NCBI GenBank assembly: GCA_046291735.1
Contig: JBKBSK010000001.1
Location: 128,054 to 192,053 of the forward strand
Length of the DNA: 64,000 nt
DNA from: Candidatus Thermochlorobacter sp.
Lineage (GTDB): Bacteria; Bacteroidota; Chlorobiia; Chlorobiales; Thermochlorobacteraceae
Direction of reading: 5' to 3'
Position 1 is the first letter of the stretch, and the number at the start of each line of letters is the position of its first letter. Positions 3,724 to 60,608 of the stretch are shown in pieces. A program made the position numbers and the translations under genes. The notes below the pieces were generated by a model. That model saw nothing but the letters and a program-made list of their open reading frames with translations. It did no database searches and was not told the origin of the DNA.

Positions 3724-5040
3724 TTAGTAGCGATAGTGCTCCGGTTTGAATGGACCTTTTGGATCGACACCGATATAGGCAGCTTGCTCTGGTGTTAGCT
3801 CTTCAAGCTCTACGCCGAGCTTTTCAAGATGCAGCCTTGCGACCATTTCATCAAGATGCTTTGGCAACACATAGACTTTGTTCTCATACTTATCTGAATT
3901 TTGCCAGAGCTCAATTTGTGCAAGCACTTGGTTAGTGAAAGACATTGACATCACAAATGATGGATGCCCCATTGCCACGCCTAAGTTCACCAAGCGCCCT
4001 TCTGCAAGCACAATAATATCTTTGCCATCGATATTGTAAAGATCGACCTGTGGCTTGATTTGTGTCTTGGTATGTCCATAGTTTTTGTTTAGCCAAGCCA
4101 TATCGATTTCAATATCGAAGTGACCGATGTTGCAGACGACGGTTTTGTCTTTCATCAGTTTGAAGTGCTTGGCGGTTACAATATCACGATTGCCTGTTGC
4201 TGTTACAACAATATCGGCTTGCGGAATAGCGTTTTCCATCTTTTTGACTTCGTAACCATCGATAGCGGCTTGTAGCGCGCAGATAGGATCGACTTCTGTG
4301 ACAATCACGCGCACGCCTGCACTGCTTAGCGATTCAGCCGACCCTTTGCCAACATCGCCATAGCCTGCTACCACCGCTACTTTCCCTGCTAGCATCAAGT
4401 CTGTGCCACGACGAATGGCATCCACCAGCGATTCACGACAGCCGTATTTGTTGTCAAACTTTGATTTTGTAACGCTATCATTGACATTAATTGCTGGCAG
4501 TGGGAGCTTACCGTTTTTCATTCTCTCATAGAGACGATGCACGCCTGTCGTAGTCTCTTCGGAGATTCCTTTGATATTTGGGACAAGTTCGGGATACTTG
4601 TCTAAGACCATATTGGTCAGATCGCCGCCATCATCCAAAATCATATTGAGCGGTTGCCCATCGGGGAAGAAAAGCGTTTGCTCAATACACCAGTCAAATT
4701 CTTCGGCGCTCATGCCTTTCCAGGCATAAACTGGAATACCTGCGGCAGCTATTGCTGCGGCTGCGTGGTCTTGTGTTGAAAAAATGTTGCAGCTCGACCA
4801 TGTTACTTCGGCACCCAGTTCTTTGAGTGTCTCAATCAGCACAGCAGTTTGAATCGTCATATGCAGACAACCCGCAATGCGCGCACCTTTGAGCGGTTTT
4901 TTTGGACCGTATTCTTTGCGAAGTTGCATCAAACCGGGCATTTCCGCTTCTGCCAGACGAATTTCTTTGCGTCCCCATTCTGCAAGTGATATATCTTTGA
5001 CCTTGTAGGGCAATCGTTTTGTTTCAGTTGCTGTTGCCAT
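3724..5040 (-). CDS. ahcY: Adenosylhomocysteinase (SAH hydrolase)
   Basis: Full-length match in character to SAHH: NAD-binding [10 protein letters not shown] and C-terminal PEHYRY. Confidence 0.95.
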
Positions 5041-5091
5041 CTTTCTAATTCAGTTTAGTTGTTGAAGGAAAGCAGGTTTGTTTTCAGAAGA

Positions 5092-6300
5092 TTATTTGAA
5101 TGCACGCTGCAAGTCTTTCACCTTGTCTAATTTTTCCCAAGGGAACATCTCACGCCCGAAGTGACCGTAAGCCGCGGTGTCTTGATAGCGCCAACCTTTG
5201 GGTTTATGCAGGCTAAAGCGCTCAATGATTGCTAACGGACGCAAGTCGAAAATCTTCTCGACTTTTTCTTGCAGTTCCCCATCGCTGATGTCACTTAGAC
5301 CCGTGCTGTGCGTATTGACATAAATAGATACAGGTCGTGCTACACCAATAGCGTAGGAGACTTGAATGGTGCACTTCTCTGCCAATCCTGCCGCCACGAT
5401 ATTTTTGGCGATGTGTCGCGCAGCGTAAGCAGCACTACGGTCTACTTTTGTTGGGTCTTTACCACTAAAGGCGCCGCCACCGTGTGGTGCAGCACCACCG
5501 TAGGTATCGACGATGATTTTTCTGCCCGTCAGACCTGTATCGCCATGCGGACCGCCGATTTCAAATTTTCCTGTGGGATTGACGAAGAACTTGGTGTTTT
5601 TATCTATTAACTCTTTTGGAATGACTTTGTTGATAGCGCATGCAATGACATCCTCTTTGATTTTGGCTTGCCATTGCTTGTCTGTCATTCCATTTGGTTT
5701 AGGATCGTGCTGCGTAGAGACCACAATGGTATCAACACGCACCACATTATTGCCATCATACTCAAGCGTCACTTGGCTCTTTGCATCAGGACGCAGGTAA
5801 GTCATCTCCTTGCCCTCTTTGCGAATATCTGCCAAACGCTTAACTAAGCGATGCGCAAACATAATCGGTGCCGGCATTAGTTCAGGGGTTTCCTTGCAGG
5901 CATAGCCAAACATCATGCCTTGGTCGCCTGCACCAATACTATCGAGCCGATCTTTATATTTTTCATACTTGTGTCTATCCACCCCCATATTGATATCTGG
6001 TGACTGGGCATGAATCGCAGAGAGAATTCCACAGGACCTTGCTTCAAACATATACTCACCTTTTGTATAGCCAATTTCTTCAATCACCTTGCGCACCAAA
6101 TCGGGCACTTCCACATACGCTTTCGTGGTTACTTCACCACCCACAATCACCTGCCCTGTGGTAACAAAGGTCTCACAAGCCACACGCGACTGGCTATCTT
6201 GCGCTAAAAACGCATCCAAGAGCGCATCGGAAATCTGGTCTGCCACTTTGTCGGGATGACCCGCTGAGACGGACTCTGATGTAAAAAGGTATTTTGCCAT
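5092..6300 (-). CDS. metK: S-adenosylmethionine synthetase
   Basis: [24 protein letters not shown] and [19 protein letters not shown] motifs. Confidence 0.95.
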
Positions 6301-6338
6301 TGATGTACGCAGTTTGCTGGTTTGCTTGAGTTACACGC

Positions 6339-6483
6339 AAAAAAATCTTTATCGCTTCTGCAGCGAAGCCAAGCGAGGTTCACGCGCATGCAGGTCTTGG
6401 AACGGACACGGATTGTCATCGCGGGAACTGCATGCACTTGGCTTGCAGTCTCGACACCGTGTCCATAGATAATGGGATGTCGA
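6339..6483 (-). promoter_or_regulatory. Structured 5' leader RNA of metK-ahcY (copy 1 of a motif shared with the metH leader)
   Basis: Helix TCGACA/TGTCGA encloses the loop CCATTAtcTATGGACACGG. The loop GGACACGG is complementary to CCGTGTCC 45 nt downstream. There is an inner hairpin ACTGCA/TGCAGT and a U7 tract at 6345..6339. Confidence 0.5.
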
Positions 6484-6494
6484 AAGCGTTAATA

Positions 6495-6523
6495 AATATA
6501 CGACAGCGTGTTTTTTTTCGCAA
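6495..6523 (-). promoter_or_regulatory. Sigma70-type promoter for the metK leader
   Basis: Minus strand reads TTGCGA, a 17-nt spacer, then TATATT. It lies about 190 nt upstream of the metK ATG. Confidence 0.45.
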
Positions 6524-6581
6524 AAGTAAAGACTTGATTCGTGTGCGACTTACAGCCTATTCTTCTTGCCTTTTGATGGCT

Positions 6582-7460
6582 TTATTCGCTTTGCAGGGCA
6601 TTTGCGCCACTGACAATTTCAATAATTTCTTTGGTAATCGCCGCTTGACGCACCCGATTGTATGTGATACCTAAAACCCGAATTAGTTCTTTGGCGTTAT
6701 TGGAAGCAGCATCCATTGCAGTCATACGTGCCGCTTGCTCTGCAGCATTGGATTCAAGTAGCATTCGCCAAATTTGATTGGCTAAATACAACGGCAAGAG
6801 TTGCGCAATGATAGACGCCGGGTCTGGCTCAAAGATATAATCACCAACAATTTTGTTTTGCGCTTTCGGCGGTTCAATCGGCAAGAAAATTTCTTTACGC
6901 AAGTTCGGCGAAAGCACCGTCTTAAATTCGTTGTAGATTAGTAAGACTCGATCCACCTCACCCTTAGCATAAAGCTCCGTGGCTTTGTCTGCAATCGCTT
7001 TTGCGGTCTCAAACTCTAACTTTTGAAAGACGCCCGGGAAGCGCTCGACAATCGGATAGCTTTGCTTGGCAAAGTAATCTACGCTGCGCCGACCTACAGG
7101 CAGCACAAGCAAGTTGTTTTTTTCTGTCCAATCTTTGTATTCGCCATTGAAGGTTTCGCGCGCCAGTTTAAGAATATTTGTATTGAATGCGCCACACAGT
7201 CCCCTATCAGCGGCAACCACAATTGCCAGCACTTTTTTGATATTCTTGCGTGGCGTAAGCAATGCAAATTCACTGGTATCGATTTTCTCAATAACAGATG
7301 CCAAGATTTTTTTCAAGGCATTGGTGTAAGGGCGTGCGGCTATTGCACGGTCTTGTGAGCGGCGCAACTTAGCTGCAGCCACCATTTTCATGGCTTTGGT
7401 TACCTGCTGCGTATTCTTGACGCCCTTGATGCGTGTGCGAAGTTCTCTTAGTGTTGCCAT
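6582..7460 (-). CDS. atpG: ATP synthase F1 gamma subunit
   Basis: MATLRELRTRIKGVKNTQQVTKAMKMVAAAKLRR is a canonical gamma N-terminus. The ORF-track extension to 7586 overlaps atpA and was trimmed. Confidence 0.9.
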   Translation of the reverse strand: MATLRELRTRIKGVKNTQQVTKAMKMVAAAKLRRSQDRAIAARPYTNALKKILASVIEKIDTSEFALLTPRKNIKKVLAIVVAADRGLCGAFNTNILKLARETFNGEYKDWTEKNNLLVLPVGRRSVDYFAKQSYPIVERFPGVFQKLEFETAKAIADKATELYAKGEVDRVLLIYNEFKTVLSPNLRKEIFLPIEPPKAQNKIVGDYIFEPDPASIIAQLLPLYLANQIWRMLLESNAAEQAARMTAMDAASNNAKELIRVLGITYNRVRQAAITKEIIEIVSGANALQSE

Positions 7461-46339: not shown

Positions 46340-49300
46340 TTATGCTGCGCTTACCTCTGCATCCACAGTACTGGGGTCGTAGTTCAAATTTTGCGCAAGC
46401 CAGCGTTCCACTTCTTCAATTGACATGCCTTTGCGCTTTGCATAATCTTCTACCTGATCTTTTCCAATTTTGCCCACACCGAAGTAGACCGCTTCTGGAT
46501 GTGCAAAGTAGAGTCCTGATACCGATGCCGCCGGATACATTGCAAAGTTTTCTGTCAGGAAAATGCCTACACGTTTTTCAACTTCTAAGAGATCGAAGAG
46601 CAAGCGTTTTTCTGTGTGGTCAGGGCAAGCTGGGTAGCCCGGCGCCGGACGAATACCTTGATATTTTTCTTCAATCAAATCGTCGTTCGTTGTTTGTTCA
46701 TTTGGTGCATAGCCCCAGTACTCGGTACGAATTTTCTTGTGCAGCATCTCTGCGAAGGCTTCTGCAAGCCTATCAGCAAGGGCTTTTGCCATAATGCTGT
46801 TGTAATCATCTTTTACATCCTCAAACATTTTGACCAGCGTCTCTAACCCATGACCTGCTGTTACAGCAAAGCCACCGATGTAGTCAATGAGCCCTGTGGA
46901 TTTTGGGGCAATGTAGTCAGCAAGGGCGCGGTTGGCGCGTTCTGCCCCTTTTTCATTTTGTTGGCGTAGTGTGTGAAACACGGTCAGCACGGTTGCACGC
47001 GATTCATCGGCATAGACTTCAATGTCATCGCCGATAGCATTTGCTGGAAAAAGTCCGAACACGGCTTTTGCTGTCAGCAAGTTCTCTGCCACAATGCGCT
47101 CCAAGAGTTGATTGGCATCACGGAAAAGTTTTTGTGCTTCCTCACCGACCACTTCATCGTGCAAGATGTTAGGGTAGCGTCCTGCAAGTTGCCAAGTCTG
47201 AAAGAAGGGTGTCCAGTCGATGTACTCGCATAGTTCAGATAGTGAGACTTGCTCCAGTGTAGTGATGCCTAGCTTTTTGGGTTTGTAGATATCTTCGGCG
47301 CGCCAAATAATTGGCGTCCGATTCTCACGCGCTTCAGCCAGCGACACATACTTGCGTGTTACGCGCTTTTTGAGATACGACTCACGCAGTTCATCATACT
47401 CGGCTTTGACTTGAGACACAAACCTATCTTTTTCTTCAGGCGTGACGAGACTTTGCACCACAGGCACGCTGCGCGAGGCATCGAGCACATGCACCACCGC
47501 ACCTGAATAGTTCGGCGCAATTTTTACAGCGGTGTGAATCTTTGAAGTGGTCGCCCCACCAATGAGCAGTGGAATTTTGAAACCCAGTCTCTCCATTTCT
47601 TTGGCAACATGAACCATTTCGTCAAGCGAGGGAGTAATCAATCCTGATAATCCAATGATATCGACTTGTTCTTTCTTTGCGGTCTCCAAGATTTTTTCAG
47701 CAGGCACCATCACGCCAAGGTCAATGACTTCAAAGTTATTGCAGGCGAGCACCACGCCCACAATGTTTTTGCCAATGTCGTGCACATCTCCTTTGACCGT
47801 TGCCATCAGCACTTTTGCTGCCGCCTTAGCATTGGGGTTTTTCGCTTTTTCTGCCTCAATGAAGGGCACAAGATGGGCAACGGATTTTTTCATCACGCGC
47901 GCCGACTTTACCACTTGCGGCAAGAACATTTTACCTGCGCCGAAAAGATCGCCAACCACATTCATGCCATCCATTAGCGGACCTTCAATGACGGCAAGCG
48001 GAGTTGGATATTTCAGGCGTGCTTCTTCGGTATCTTCTACAATGTAAGTATCAATGCCTTTAATCAGGGCATATTTCAAGCGTTCTTCGACTGTGCCCTT
48101 GCGCCATTCTTCTTCTTGCACTTCGGGTGTTTTCGCCTCAGAGCGTTTCTTTAATTCTTCGGCAAATTCCACTAAACGCTCGGTTGCATCGGGGCGTCGA
48201 TTGAGCAGCACGTCCTCAACGCGCTCCAAAAGTTCTTTATCGATTTCTTCATAGACCTCAATCATGCCGGCATTGACAATGCCCATATCGAGCCCGGCTC
48301 GGATTGCATGATACAGAAATGCTGAGTGCATCGCTTCGCGCACAGGATTATTGCCCCTGAACGAGAATGAAATGTTCGAGATGCCGCCCGAGACTTTGGC
48401 ATGTGGCAAGTTCTCTTTAATCCACTTGGTTGCTCTGATGAAGTCTACGGCATAGTTATTATGTTCTTCAATGCCAGTAGCAACCGTGAGAATATTTGGG
48501 TCAAAGATGATATCCTGTGGTGGGAAGCCAACTTCTTTGGTGAGAATATCGTAAGCGCGCTTGCAGATTTCAATTTTGCGCTCGAAGGTATCGGCTTGTC
48601 CGCGTTCATCAAATGCCATGACAACCGTAGCAGCGCCATATTCCATAATCTTCTTTGCCTGCTCTTTGAACTTCTCTTCACCTTCTTTGAGTGAAATAGA
48701 GTTCACAATGGCTTTACCTTGCACGCATTTGAGACCTGCTTCAATGACAGACCATTTGGAGGAATCAATCATAATTGGCACGCGCGAAATATCTGGTTCA
48801 GCAGCAATTAGGTTCAGGAACTTGACCATTGCCGCTTCAGAGTCAAGCATGCCCTCATCCATATTGACATCGATAATCTGTGCGCCGTTTTCAACTTGCT
48901 GACGTGCAATTGCAAGTGCTTCTTCGTATTTCTGCTCTTTGATAAGTTTTGCAAACTTCGGCGAGCCTGTCACATTTGTGCGCTCACCGATGTTGAGGAA
49001 GCGCGTCTCTGGTGTTACCACAAGTGGCTCAAGTCCAGCAAGTTGCATGTAGCTTGTGCGCGCCTTGGGCTTGCGTGGTTTGAAGCGTGCGGCAACCTCG
49101 GCAAAGGCTTTGATATGCTCCGGTGTTGTGCCGCAGCAACCGCCGATAATGTTGACGAATTCATTGCGCAAAAAGTCTTCAAACTGCGCCGCCATATACT
49201 CTGGCGTCTCATCATACTCGCCGAAAGTGTTGGGCAAACCTGCGTTCGGATAGAGACTGGTATAACACGTCGCATGGCGCGCTAGCGTCTCAATAAACGG

Positions 49301-50215
49301 GCGCATTTGTGCTGAACCTAAGGCGCAGTTCAAGCCAACGCTAAGCAAATTTGGCGCATGTGAAATTGAAATCCAGAAGGCTTCGGTGGTTTGTCCTGAC
49401 AGCGTTCTGCCGCTTTGGTCGACAATCGTGCCTGAAATCATGACAGGAACACGCCGTCCAACCGTGTCGAAGTACTTGCGAATCGCTGAGAGTGCTGCTT
49501 TGGTATTGAGTGTATCGGTAATGGTCTCGATCAGCAAGAGATCTACCCCGCCATCAATGAGACCGCAGATTTGCTCGTAGTATGCCTCAAAGAGTTGGTC
49601 GTAGGTGATGGCGCGAAAGCCGGGGTCGTTGACATCAGGCGACATTGACGCCAGTTTCGTCGTCGGTCCAATCGCCCCTGCCACGAAGCGCGGTTTGTTA
49701 GGCGTCTTCTGCATTATCTCTCGCACTGCTTCTTTAGCCAGCTTTGCCGATTTGAAGTTCATCTCATAGACCAGATGCTCCATCACATAATCTGCTTGCG
49801 AGATACGATTTGCGCTGAATGTGTTGGTTTCAATAATATCCGCGCCGGCTTCGAGATATTGCAGGTGAATTTCTTTAATGATTTGCGGTTGTGTGAGCGA
49901 AAGCAGTTCGTTATTGCCTTTGAGTGTGCCTTTGCTGGGCACAGTGCCATGTGCATGAGCAGGATTAGCACAGCTGTGCCCATTGCGCTCAACACCCGTC
50001 CCCGACTGCGCAGGTGCTCTGTGAAGAACTTCATCGAGCTTGTGCTCCATGGCTTCTGCGATAGGGTCGTGCGGCTGGACAGGATTGAAGTCTTTGAACC
50101 GCTCGCCACGATAATCTTCTTCAGTAAGTTTGTAGCGCTGAATCATCGTCCCCATCGCGCCATCGAGCACAAGGATGCGCTCTTTAAGCAGCTCGTAGAT
50201 TGTCGGCTGTGACAT
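46340..50215 (-). CDS. metH: Cobalamin-dependent methionine synthase
   Basis: All five modules are present: Hcy (GGCCGTTP), pterin, the B12 DxHxxG motif (GDVHDIGKN), cap, and the AdoMet activation domain ([12 protein letters not shown]). Confidence 0.95.
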
Positions 50216-50266
50216 ATCATTAGGTTAAAATTGGACTGCGAAACTGGTGTTTCGGCAAGCGAGGGC

Positions 50267-50301
50267 AAAAAACAGAAAAGCCTCTCCGAAGTGGAAAGGC
50301 T
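50267..50301 (-). terminator. Intrinsic terminator inside the metH leader (attenuator)
   Basis: Minus strand reads AGCCTTTCC-actt-CGGAGAGGCT followed by TTTCTGTTTTTT, about 50 nt upstream of the metH ATG. Confidence 0.6.
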
Positions 50302-50320
50302 GCCGTGTAATTATGATGCT

Positions 50321-50407
50321 GGACACGACCTCCATTTCGGAGCAACTTTCGGGCGCTCGCCGCCGAAAGCCTTTAACGCCGTGTCCATACCTAATGGCGC
50401 GTTAAAG
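50321..50407 (-). promoter_or_regulatory. Structured 5' leader RNA of metH (copy 2 of the metK-leader motif)
   Basis: Helix CTTTAACGC/GCGTTAAAG encloses the loop gCCATTAggTATGGACACG. There is an inner hairpin CTTTCGG/CCGAAAG. A downstream CGTGTCC is complementary to the loop. A TATATT -10 box lies at 50422..50417. Confidence 0.5.
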
Positions 50408-50576
50408 CTAGTGTGCAATATACAGCAGATTTTTGAAAGTGAAAAGTTTCTTCATGCACAACAGGAAGCTCACTCCAACAACCATCTTTTGCTTTAATGC
50501 GTAAGATATTTTACATAACTATAAGCGTACATCTATCGTACGCGGCGACTTTCTCAAGCCAACCTTTGTAAAAGCT

Positions 50577-55634: not shown

Positions 55635-57704
55635 ATGATTTGTGCCACTCGTTTTTTCTTTCTCTTTTTCTTTCTTGTTTTTTCTGCACCGCTTGCTACT
55701 GTCTTTGCACAGCCCTTTTGGCAGAACTCTGAGATGCGCGCCATTAAAGCTGCTGCCGACCGGCGCGATGTTGCTACCCTTTTGTCGTATTTTGATAAAT
55801 CTGATGCGCTGGATGCCTTCGCACTTTATGCACTCATTAGCGTGCAATCCGATAGCGCCTTGCCTGTGATTATGCGCAAACTCTCTTCGCCCTCCTCTCG
55901 CGTGCGCGAATATGCTGCACTTGCACTTGGTCAGACCTTGCGACTCTCTTCTCATTCTGCTCCTTATGCCGATTCTGTACTTACCTTCATTTCTCGTGAG
56001 CGCAATCGTGCTGTGCGTTATGAACTCATCATTGCGCTAGGTCATTTTGGCAGCCTTGATGCGATGGAGAAACTCGTGGACTTGAACTTGAACGATCGCG
56101 TCTTGAAAGATGCTGTTGCTGAAGCCCTTGCACGTGCCGCTATTCGCCGAGTACGTTCTGCAAAACTCACTGCTGCTGTCGCCAAACTTTACAATGAGAC
56201 CAAGCGCGCACCGATGTTTAACTTTTCTATCTATGCCTTAGCGCGCATTGCTGATGCAAACTTGCTCACGCCACATCAATCCACCATTCTTGAAGCCTGT
56301 CGTGCCCCCAATCCAGAAACGCGTGCTTATGCTGTGGTTGCTGCATCATTTTTGCCCACTTCAGAAGCGCTTACGGCACTCCTTAACGCTACGCAAGATC
56401 GAGATTGGCGCGTTGCCACAAATGCAATTCGTGCCTTAAGTCGTTTTTTCCCAGATGACACTCGCCAGATTTATGATGCTGCACTTGCACTGCTGCGCTC
56501 GCCAAATTATCACCTAAAAAAAGAAACGCTCCAGATGCTGGCACGACGCAACATGCTGCGCGACGCCGCCGAGCAGCGCGAAACACTCATCGCCGCTATT
56601 GAGTCTTTGCTTGATTCACCTTCACCTGACCTCTGCGCTGAAGCCTTGCGCACGCTGGCACAGATTGCCCCTGAAAAAGCAGCTATGCACCTTGACACAA
56701 TGACATCAAAACCTGCACTAACACCCGCTGCACTGGATGCAATTGGTATTTTAGCGACAATCGAGCAGCGTCCGCGCCTCAATTTTTTGAGTACCTTGCA
56801 AACCTGCGCTGTTGATTTGCAACCGCTTCGTGCTACAGCTGCCATTCGCGCCTTGGGCACGATTTGGAAAAACTTTCACTCCGATACGGCATTGAGTCAC
56901 TCCATTGAATCGACTCTCATCTCTGCGCTGGCGCATCATGCTCAATCAAAACCACAGAACACTTCTGCCATTCAAATGCTGGCTGCAATTTTTTCAGATT
57001 CGCTTCTTGCTTCTCCAAAATTTTTTGAGCCACTGCGCGCCGCCCTAACACAACTTTCTTCCAACAGCGACGCAGAAACTGTGATGACGCTTCTGGAAAG
57101 CCTCGCTAAACTGCAAGGCTCGGCTGCTGCTTCGACCATAGAGCACTACCTTACAGATAGCCAACTTTCCGTGCGTAAAAAAGCCGCAGAGCTGTACGCA
57201 CGCCTCACAGGTCAGCACACCTCGATTGTCTCCACGCTATCCGATATCTCACCTGACTGGGCATTCTTTCAGCGATTCTCTAAAAACCCAATAGCCACAA
57301 TCCAAACCAGTAAAGGACGCATCACAGTTGAGCTTTTTATTGAAGAAGCCCCTTTTACCGTTCAAAATTTTGTCAAACTCGCCGAGCAGCACTTTTTTGA
57401 TGGTCTCACCTTTCACCGTGTTGTCTCCAACTTTGTCATTCAAGGTGGCGACCCAAAGGGTGATGGCTCAGGCGGTCCACCCTACTCAATCCGCTCTGAA
57501 TTTACCCGTCGCCGTTTTGAGCGTGGCATTATTGGTATGGCATCTGCCGGCAAGGACACGGAAGGCTCACAGTTTTTTATCATGCATTCGCACCACCCAC
57601 ATCTAGATGGTCGCTACACGGCTTTTGGTCTTGTCAAGAACGGGTTTGAGACGCTCGACAAAATTGAGATTGGCGACAAAATTCTTTCTGTGAGCCTTCA
57701 GTAG
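55635..57704 (+). CDS. Secreted HEAT-repeat protein fused to a cyclophilin-type peptidyl-prolyl isomerase
   Basis: Signal peptide from MICATRFFF, about 500 aa of HEAT/ARM-like repeats, and the C-terminal cyclophilin core FHRVVSNFVIQGGDP..GSQFFI. Confidence 0.8.
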   Translation: MICATRFFFLFFFLVFSAPLATVFAQPFWQNSEMRAIKAAADRRDVATLLSYFDKSDALDAFALYALISVQSDSALPVIMRKLSSPSSRVREYAALALGQTLRLSSHSAPYADSVLTFISRERNRAVRYELIIALGHFGSLDAMEKLVDLNLNDRVLKDAVAEALARAAIRRVRSAKLTAAVAKLYNETKRAPMFNFSIYALARIADANLLTPHQSTILEACRAPNPETRAYAVVAASFLPTSEALTALLNATQDRDWRVATNAIRALSRFFPDDTRQIYDAALALLRSPNYHLKKETLQMLARRNMLRDAAEQRETLIAAIESLLDSPSPDLCAEALRTLAQIAPEKAAMHLDTMTSKPALTPAALDAIGILATIEQRPRLNFLSTLQTCAVDLQPLRATAAIRALGTIWKNFHSDTALSHSIESTLISALAHHAQSKPQNTSAIQMLAAIFSDSLLASPKFFEPLRAALTQLSSNSDAETVMTLLESLAKLQGSAAASTIEHYLTDSQLSVRKKAAELYARLTGQHTSIVSTLSDISPDWAFFQRFSKNPIATIQTSKGRITVELFIEEAPFTVQNFVKLAEQHFFDGLTFHRVVSNFVIQGGDPKGDGSGGPPYSIRSEFTRRRFERGIIGMASAGKDTEGSQFFIMHSHHPHLDGRYTAFGLVKNGFETLDKIEIGDKILSVSLQ

Positions 57705-60445: not shown

Positions 60446-60518
60446 TGGGGCTATAGCTCAGTTGGTAGAGCGCTGCAATCGCACTGCAGAGGTCAGGAGT
60501 TCGAATCTCCTTAGCTCC
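60446..60518 (+). tRNA. tRNA-Ala (anticodon CGC)
   Basis: Cloverleaf: acceptor GGGGCTA/TAGCTCC with the G3:U70 alanine identity pair, D-arm GCTCAGTTGGTAGAGC, anticodon loop atCGCac, and T-arm AGGAGTTCGAATCTCCT. Coordinates may be +1. Confidence 0.9.
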
Positions 60519-60608
60519 ACATACTTGTGCATCTTTCACCCATCTTTGAGTCGATGCTGATTGAGATACTGTTTGTGAGTTTTTGACCTGCCTAAAGCAG
60601 TTGTCCTT

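Follow-up and report, generated by a model that had tools for sequence, protein, structure and literature searches.

A SAM-Chlorobi RNA in the metK-ahcY leader of Candidatus Thermochlorobacter, its diverged copy upstream of metH and a possible switch of competing helices

The 64,000-nucleotide (nt) stretch of Candidatus Thermochlorobacter sp. DNA analysed here (the window) carries on its minus strand, according to NCBIfam equivalog models, the genes metK (5092..6300; TIGR01034, 556 bits) and ahcY (3724..5040; TIGR00936, 646.7 bits), together a putatively regulated operon (3724..6300), and metH, which encodes cobalamin-dependent methionine synthase (46340..50215; NF007024, 2130 bits). The leader of metK contains an RNA element that we assign to the SAM-Chlorobi family (SAM, S-adenosylmethionine), and the leader of metH contains a diverged variant with the same architecture. 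The window MetH has a 100% identical counterpart in a Candidatus Thermochlorobacter sp. metagenome-assembled genome (MAG), and MetK shares 83-86% identity with Thermochlorobacteriaceae and Chloroherpetonaceae proteins; these homologues place the genome in the Chlorobi (Chloroherpeton lineage), so that the taxon fits the SAM-Chlorobi family, which is restricted to this phylum. All leader features described below lie on the minus strand. The metK leader lies in the 281-nt gap between the atpG stop (6582) and the metK ATG (6300). Its predicted promoter, TTGCGA-17-TATATT (6495..6523), was correctly read in an earlier annotation of the stretch (the original prediction) and is the sole sigma70-like site within 6200..6700 (one site, versus 0.7 expected); a Bacteroidetes-type pattern, TTTG ... 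TAtaTTTa, is also compatible with this region. The metH leader has the predicted promoter TTTTCA-17-TATATT (50417..50445).

Results of a cmscan search of Rfam 15 show that positions 6482..6402 match RF01724, SAM-Chlorobi, with 47.0 bits (gathering score 35 bits), the alignment covering the full model (1-87). What the original prediction had offered as a suggestion thus becomes an identification: the metK-ahcY leader element (6402..6485) is almost certainly a SAM-Chlorobi RNA, a new member of an already described family. It shares with the family P1, the inner hairpin, P2, the 3′ tail and the phylum, and is located in the leader of a metK-ahcY operon, directly past the promoter. No other Rfam family is reported for the metK leader at E ≤ 10 save a 13.9-bit chance match, and at the same threshold neither leader matches the SAM-I, SAM-II, SAM-IV, SAM-V, SAM-VI, SAM/SAH or SAH models (SAH, S-adenosylhomocysteine), in agreement with the earlier remark that SAM-I and SAH-riboswitch signatures are absent; in the window as a whole, none of these models reaches its gathering score.

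The consensus architecture of RF01724 is present in both copies, namely P1 around a CCAU/AUGG hairpin, an unpaired ACAC, a variable P2 and the 3′ sequence UUUUCCGUGUCC. In the metK copy, the 5′ hairpin domain (6450..6484) scores 52.8 bits with R1, a custom model of this domain built in the present analysis. P1 pairs 6484..6476 with 6458..6450 and incorporates the shorter helix recognized earlier, TCGACA (6483..6478) / TGTCGA (6456..6451); the loop that this helix closes is indeed 21 nt long (TCCCATTATCTATGGACACGG), although the letters first given for it lacked one C and numbered 20. P1 begins about 10 nt past the -10 box, so that only a few nt would separate the start of the RNA element from the inferred start of transcription. 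It encloses the inner hairpin CCAU-UAUCU-AUGG (6475..6463), which like P1 is defined by covariation across relatives, and the unpaired ACAC (6462..6459), read from the sequence. ACTGCA (6449..6444) / TGCAGT (6432..6427), which had been taken for the inner hairpin, is present but corresponds to P2 (6427..6449; ACUGCA, an 11-nt loop and UGCAGU), as judged from the sequence and the Rfam alignment. P2 has a different sequence in every lineage and varies in length, while the hairpin is always kept. The tail, CCGUGUCCGU (6402..6411), is our proposed switching sequence; it includes CCGTGTCC (6411..6404), and its complement is the 3′ half of the conserved core (6466..6457). The minimum free energy (MFE) fold of the 93-nt region 6488..6396 uses this tail:core helix (-29.3 kcal/mol, z -2.87).

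The second copy (50319..50407) precedes metH. Here RF01724 aligns end to end with positions 50404..50319 at 32.3 bits (E 2e-4, 411 nt searched), which falls short of the gathering score, and R1 gives 59.4 bits, versus just 12.7 bits for the reverse strand. By the Rfam criterion this copy is not a member; given an architecture like that of the metK copy, it is treated here as a diverged paralogous variant. Read from the sequence, it would comprise P1 (50407..50399 with 50379..50371), the inner hairpin (50397..50385), P2 (about 50370..50345), an extra hairpin, P3 (50342..50330), and the tail UCGUGUCCA (50328..50320). Exactly two copies of the 19-nt core CCATTANNTATGGACACGG are present in the 64 kb, both of them minus-strand (6475..6457 and 50397..50379; 0 of 100 shuffles contain a match), and each begins 19 nt past the TATATT box of its leader; the shared core and its equal distance from the box are as the original prediction had them, and so is the construction of the equivalent helices from different sequences, P1 and P2 both differing between the copies. 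The assertion that the metH leader has the same downstream complement as the metK leader has to be corrected: it is TCGTGTCC (50328..50321; RNA UCGUGUCC) rather than CCGTGTCC/CCGUGUCC, and offers seven Watson-Crick pairs and one G-U pair. A search of the window with a degenerate core pattern and with R1, filters off, revealed no third copy (next best 12.9 bits). A fourth occurrence of CCGTGTCC, at 57561..57554, was set aside as a chance match, as it lies in coding-looking sequence with no core nearby.

Relatives of the two leaders were gathered by a genome scan, a metagenome scan and look-ups via MetK and MetH homologues, and amount to at least about 45 distinct leaders; the scan of the genome collection with a 15-base pattern returned mostly chance matches and at least 25 Chlorobi loci, 24 of these with the full motif. 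Numbers preceded by L label leaders or loci from these related genomes. R1 finds one copy per locus and two in the window. Copies linked to metH occur in at least three sub-lineages (the window with L120, L138 and L141; L074, L136 and L150; L149), each preceding the N terminus of MetH. The metK copies of the Chloroherpeton lineage score 39-52.8 bits with RF01724, whereas none of the metH copies reaches the gathering score, and L074, L136, L149 and L150 are unreported even at E ≤ 1; these four nonetheless share the invariant core, P1, P2 and tail. As the Rfam model misses the metH variants, the range of the family is currently under-annotated. The motif is missing from the compared metH upstream sequences of Chloroherpeton thalassium (L148) and of four other relatives or outgroups (L151-L154; only 144 nt compared in L153), which indicates that the metH association is lineage-restricted, the comparison being one of lineages other than the Chlorobiaceae, whose metH leaders lie outside it.

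Covariation was assessed among 27 to 30 related leaders overall, with subsets of 13 Chloroherpeton-like leaders for P1 and 27 sequences for the inner hairpin, and its significance was judged against 500 shuffles. The predicted P1 is strongly supported: two-sided changes affect 6 of its 9 pairs, 90.6% of the cells are paired, its covariation score exceeds that of all 500 shuffles, and pairing falls to 27-47% once the 3′ partner is moved by 1-3 columns. Chlorobiaceae P1 shows 3 covarying pairs of 7, in a register shifted by 1 nt relative to that of the Chloroherpeton-like leaders. All 27 sequences compared keep the inner hairpin paired, L149 having CCGA/UCGG in place of CCAU/AUGG, that is, two compensatory pairs. 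The tail CCGUGUCC and the core GGACACGG also keep their complementarity through two-sided changes; their helix is mostly invariant, and the tail follows where the core changes. Thus, the L149 tail reads GUGUCUGAAGA opposite UCUUCGGACAC (11 base pairs (bp)), CCAUAG of the tail having become CUGAAG. L150 displays ACGC for ACAC in the core, GCGU for GUGU in the tail and GGACGC for GACAC in a downstream box described below, while the metK leader L041, from the same MAG, retains ACAC/GUGU. L074 and L136 extend the register of the helix (CUAUGGACAC/GUGUCCAUAG). Overall, two-sided changes affect 4 of 12 tail:core pairs; 2 of the 500 shuffles do as well, and none of the remaining measures is significant.

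In its helix with the core, the tail takes up the 3′ strand of the inner hairpin and, in most sequences, also bases of the uppermost one or two P1 pairs. Because tail:core and inner hairpin use the same bases, the two are alternative structures, which favours a two-state switch over a static pseudoknot. The H-type pseudoknot potential put forward originally is accordingly right as to the complementarity, which is real and undergoes coordinated changes in two lineages; a fixed pseudoknot as the only state is disfavoured, since the inner hairpin covaries. The two states are close in predicted energy, the hairpin state of the metH leader having -53.6 and the tail:core state -55.0 kcal/mol, and the MFE fold alternates between them among relatives.

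Downstream of the tail, most Chloroherpeton-like leaders and the window metH leader contain a strong predicted intrinsic terminator, 30-75 nt past the tail. This read-out, together with the antiterminator described next, is an addition to the interpretation of the original prediction. The window metH terminator (50267..50301), a consensus prediction, consists of the stem AGCCUUUCC-ACUUC-GGAGAGGCU (50301..50279) followed by a U-rich run. The stem, GCCUUUYC...GRAAAGGC, is near-identical in metK and metH leaders from different lineages (L041, L121, L122, L128, L130, L140, L074, L136, L149, L150 and window 50279..50301), an unusual conservation for which required pairing with the purine-rich linker is the best explanation. 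A box that copies part of the core sequence directly precedes the terminator on its 5′ side: ACACGGC in the window (50302..50308), GACAC in L074, GGACGC in L150 and CACGGAA in L140. The tail is complementary to this box, its alternative partner, and the purine-rich linker (P3 in metH types) is complementary to the 5′ strand and loop of the terminator. In L041, for example, CGAUAGAAAAG is complementary to CUUUUCUAUCG, and L121, L122 and L130 show covariation of the outer pairs. For 15 of 16 leaders, the duplex of linker plus tail with box plus terminator 5′ strand is predicted at -16 to -26 kcal/mol; the mean z against shuffles is -3.07, and in 7 leaders none of 300 shuffles per leader is as good. 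This antiterminator is the MFE structure of the isolated linker-to-terminator segment in 8 of 13 leaders. In metH types, folds with and without the terminator are 1-4 kcal/mol apart; the complementarity of P3 to the terminator hairpin brings an extended antiterminator within 4 kcal/mol in the metH leader.

The best overall explanation of these features, which we consider probable, is that the SAM-Chlorobi RNA is a cis-acting switch in which a chain of mutually exclusive helices controls an early stop of transcription. The relay of competing helices itself (hairpin, tail:core, antiterminator, terminator) is somewhat better assured. The 5′ hairpin domain, P1 around CCAU/AUGG with the unpaired ACAC, would fold first. 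The tail, (C/U)CGUGUCC, would then base-pair to ACAC and, by invading the inner hairpin and the upper end of P1, extend into a tail:core helix of 8-11 bp. These two predicted steps are shown by covariation, and both are retained in the window metK leader. A tail that stays free would pair with the core-copy box, and the linker or P3 with the terminator 5′ strand, to form the antiterminator, a proposal supported by complementarity, one coordinated change and the duplex statistics. Otherwise the terminator would form and transcription would halt before the gene; termination as the read-out is what we infer from the predicted terminator. An effector linked to the SAM cycle might stabilize the 5′ hairpin or cover the ACAC toehold, in which case the tail would remain free, the antiterminator would form and the genes would be on. 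We lean tentatively, and short of an even chance, towards this on-switch direction because the inner hairpin is under selection, because tail:core appears thermodynamically at least as good unaided, and because the regulon of ahcY-metK and metH resembles SAH-responsive systems in genomes that already sense SAM with SAM-I. A more specific version, a new class of on-switch in which SAH or another SAM-cycle metabolite binds the 5′ hairpin, covers ACAC and blocks tail invasion, is distinctly unlikely; it would be a solution structurally unrelated to the SAH riboswitch already known.

Several observations weigh against the switch as formulated. Only one of five tail:core measures clearly exceeds shuffles, the covariation of tail:core and inner hairpin comes from two lineages with one sequence each, and six central tail:core pairs (columns 25-28, 30, and 29 except in L150) are otherwise invariant. 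One family seed, NC_007514.1/2027693-2027794 from Chlorobium chlorochromatii, has the core GGUCACGG and still the tail CCGUGUCC, leaving an uncompensated U-U in the tail:core helix. The full-length metH leader permits the tail:box hairpin and the terminator together, so that antitermination requires strand exchange between P3 and terminator, which is comparable in energy and not favoured. Whereas the metH leader has the predicted hairpin, T-run and antiterminator alternatives expected of a putative intrinsic-terminator attenuator, the window metK leader has no terminator-like site, its hairpin and U7 tract failing terminator criteria. In Chlorobiaceae (L003..L119, alignment A5) the downstream consensus fold is weak (-1.45 kcal/mol). 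Finally, four Chlorobaculum tepidum constructs, some with the tail, showed no in-line probing change at 1 mM SAM, SAH, methionine or homocysteine (Weinberg et al. 2010; PMC2864571); the SAH negative weighs against a simple on-switch and keeps a protein effector plausible.

The Chlorobiaceae fold just mentioned pairs GUG of the tail with CAC in a box some 30 nt further on, the pre-tail UUUUU with GAAAA, and the linker GGA with UCC. Faint as this predicted fold is, its pairing logic matches that of the Chloroherpeton-type antiterminator.

Two rivals retain some weight. The first is an off-switch in which P1 and tail:core, as an H-type pseudoknot aptamer, bind SAM or a related metabolite, the tail is sequestered from the antiterminator and the terminator forms when that metabolite is abundant. 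Feedback repression of metK and metH by SAM is the commonest SAM riboswitch logic, and the tail would be the strand common to aptamer and antiterminator, as in classical off-switches. Eight Watson-Crick tail:core pairs of the metH copy (50387..50380 with 50320..50327) are compatible with a full P1, and the 11-bp tail helix of L074, L136 and L150 leaves P1 untouched. However, 1 mM SAM gave no response on constructs that included the tail, the inner hairpin covaries yet has no role in a pseudoknot, SAM-I already serves metYX in Chlorobi genomes, and SAM repression of ahcY, a core member of SAH-responsive regulons, would be unusual; we regard the off-switch as rather unlikely. A similarly low probability attaches to the second rival, the same RNA relay operated by a protein or other macromolecule that binds the invariant 5′ hairpin in the manner of PyrR, TRAP or BglG-LicT. 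It would accommodate the failure of all four small molecules in the published probing, the invariance of loop bases U18 and A19 and of the internal loop, for which no pairing accounts, and the scant space that a small hairpin offers for a complex ligand pocket. Against it, the loci examined yielded no candidate protein and no conserved neighbouring regulator gene, and the authors of the probing experiments warn that construct design might have caused the negatives.

Very improbable, by comparison, is a DNA operator, that is, binding of a SahR- or MetJ-like SAM-cycle transcription factor to the core beside the -10 box and to its repeats in tail and box. The start of the element about 10 nt past the -10 box at a fixed distance, the three occurrences of a 6-8 bp word and the absence of a ligand response in vitro could be read in this way. 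Nevertheless, P1 and P2 vary freely in sequence and stay paired, in part as G-U, which the opposite strand would turn into A-C, P2 varies in length, and the distance between partners is variable, at 50-130 nt. A single factor specificity cannot account for one MAG having ACAC/GUGU in its metK leader and ACGC/GCGU/ACGC in its metH leader. These differing words, the frequent G-U pairs and the low R1 score of the reverse strand of the metH copy argue for RNA rather than a DNA operator, and with the 6 covarying pairs of P1 they uphold the preference for RNA structure over a protein operator expressed in the original prediction. A leader-peptide attenuator, in which an AUG within the core would open a short open reading frame (MDT...) from the conserved AUGGACACGG whose translation steers the downstream structures (16 codons in the metK leader, 6415..6465, MDTVSRLQAKCMQFPR followed by a stop; 25 codons in the metH leader, 50312..50389), can practically be dismissed, as L149, if its leader is functional, has UUCGG instead of UAUGG and no AUG, frame length and sequence are unconserved, no ribosome-binding sequence is present, and variation tracks base pairing and not codons. 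The frames are probably not translated. T-box-like UGGN/NCCA pairing was also considered and is ruled out by CGGA in L149.

The SAM-Chlorobi motif was described from 10 Chlorobiaceae sequences upstream of metK-ahcY with covariation rated modest, and its consensus comprises P1, CCAU/AUGG and P2 with the 3′ UUUUCCGUGUCC unpaired and no pseudoknot, alternative pairing or terminator marked (Weinberg et al. 2010; PMC2864571). Relative to that family, the metH copies described here carry the extra P3 and score 32.3 bits or go undetected, and the Chloroherpeton-like P1 register is 1 nt off that of Chlorobiaceae. According to Sun et al. (2013), metK-ahcY constitutes the entire SAM-Chlorobi regulon, including that of Chloroherpeton thalassium, and SAM-I riboswitches control metYX in the same Chlorobi genomes. 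SahR, a SAH-responsive regulator, has ahcY, metH, metF and metK as its core regulon, and the conserved core of the SAH-riboswitch regulon likewise includes ahcY. The SAH riboswitch (RF01057) and SahR thus resemble SAM-Chlorobi in controlling ahcY, metH and metK and in coexisting with a separate SAM sensor (in Chlorobi, SAM-I on metYX). However, neither leader matches RF01057, SAH had no effect on the C. tepidum RNA, and SahR is a DNA-binding protein. With SAM-II and SAM-V, the element shares methionine and SAM genes and the possibility of an H-type pseudoknot made of P1 and tail:core, whose first loop would be long and span the second helix, but there is no Rfam match, the loop strand CCAU pairs into the inner hairpin of a two-state switch rather than forming a triplex, and the published probing revealed no SAM binding. 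As in PyrR, TRAP, LicT/SacY RAT and T-box systems, a small conserved 5′ hairpin would select antiterminator or terminator via competing helices; it bears no resemblance to PyrR-binding loops, RAT or T-box sequences, and its UGGN-like bases are not kept in L149.

SAM-Chlorobi has been an orphan regulatory RNA since 2010, and the later work found in the literature searched consists of regulon catalogues, with no mechanistic study among them. The Chloroherpeton-lineage sequences add metH as a second target, which makes the regulon resemble SAH-responsive systems, coordinated changes as evidence that core and conserved 3′ tail form a helix competing with the inner hairpin, and clear predicted terminators whose 5′ strand matches tail and linker. 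Nothing in the literature searched mentions a link to metH, an alternative pairing or a terminator platform for SAM-Chlorobi, which suggests that the metH-linked variant, the tail as switching strand and the terminator/antiterminator platform in the Chloroherpeton lineage are new. The advance is modest but useful in that a motif of obscure function now has a concrete model that mutations can test; for ligand screening, the Thermochlorobacter metH leader with its predicted terminator is also the better construct.

The downstream portion of the window metK leader is organized differently from that of the metH leader. The GCUUC/GAAGC hairpin (6369..6365 / 6358..6354) and the U7 tract (6345..6339) are as originally reported and are kept in the close relatives L143 and L144; with the A-rich spacer between them they make up 6339..6369. 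The closest relatives (L143, L144 and L145) likewise lack a canonical terminator and show only a 5-bp hairpin and a U-run separated by A-rich sequence. A hairpin CGCGAUG/CAU(G)CGCG (6417..6423 with about 6382..6389) holds the tail in its loop, and the 3′ half of P2, GUGCAUGCAG (6428..6437), is complementary to the downstream CUGCAUGCGC (about 6383..6392). These two complementarities may provide a lineage-specific read-out in place of the terminator. A terminator/antiterminator model for this leader was rejected, the linker:post-tail hairpin and the P2-downstream complementarity being too little conserved to claim it.

In the metH leader, the segment past the terminator, CCCUCGCUUGCCGAAAC (50249..50265), is complementary to the 5′ strand and loop of P2 (50370..50356). 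The same pairing is present in L120, L138 and L141 (10-14 bp with one bulge) and appears in the MFE folds of L120 and L138; it may represent a second regulatory layer past the terminator.

Elsewhere, the GBChlB genome (L146, 2719..3138) has a 139-amino-acid gene with retroviral-type aspartyl protease domains between metK and ahcY, which shows that the operon is not always contiguous. The window also contains, on the plus strand, a transfer RNA (tRNA) gene (60447..60519, 69.7 bits) whose anticodon loop, AUCGCAC, identifies it as probably tRNA-Ala(CGC).

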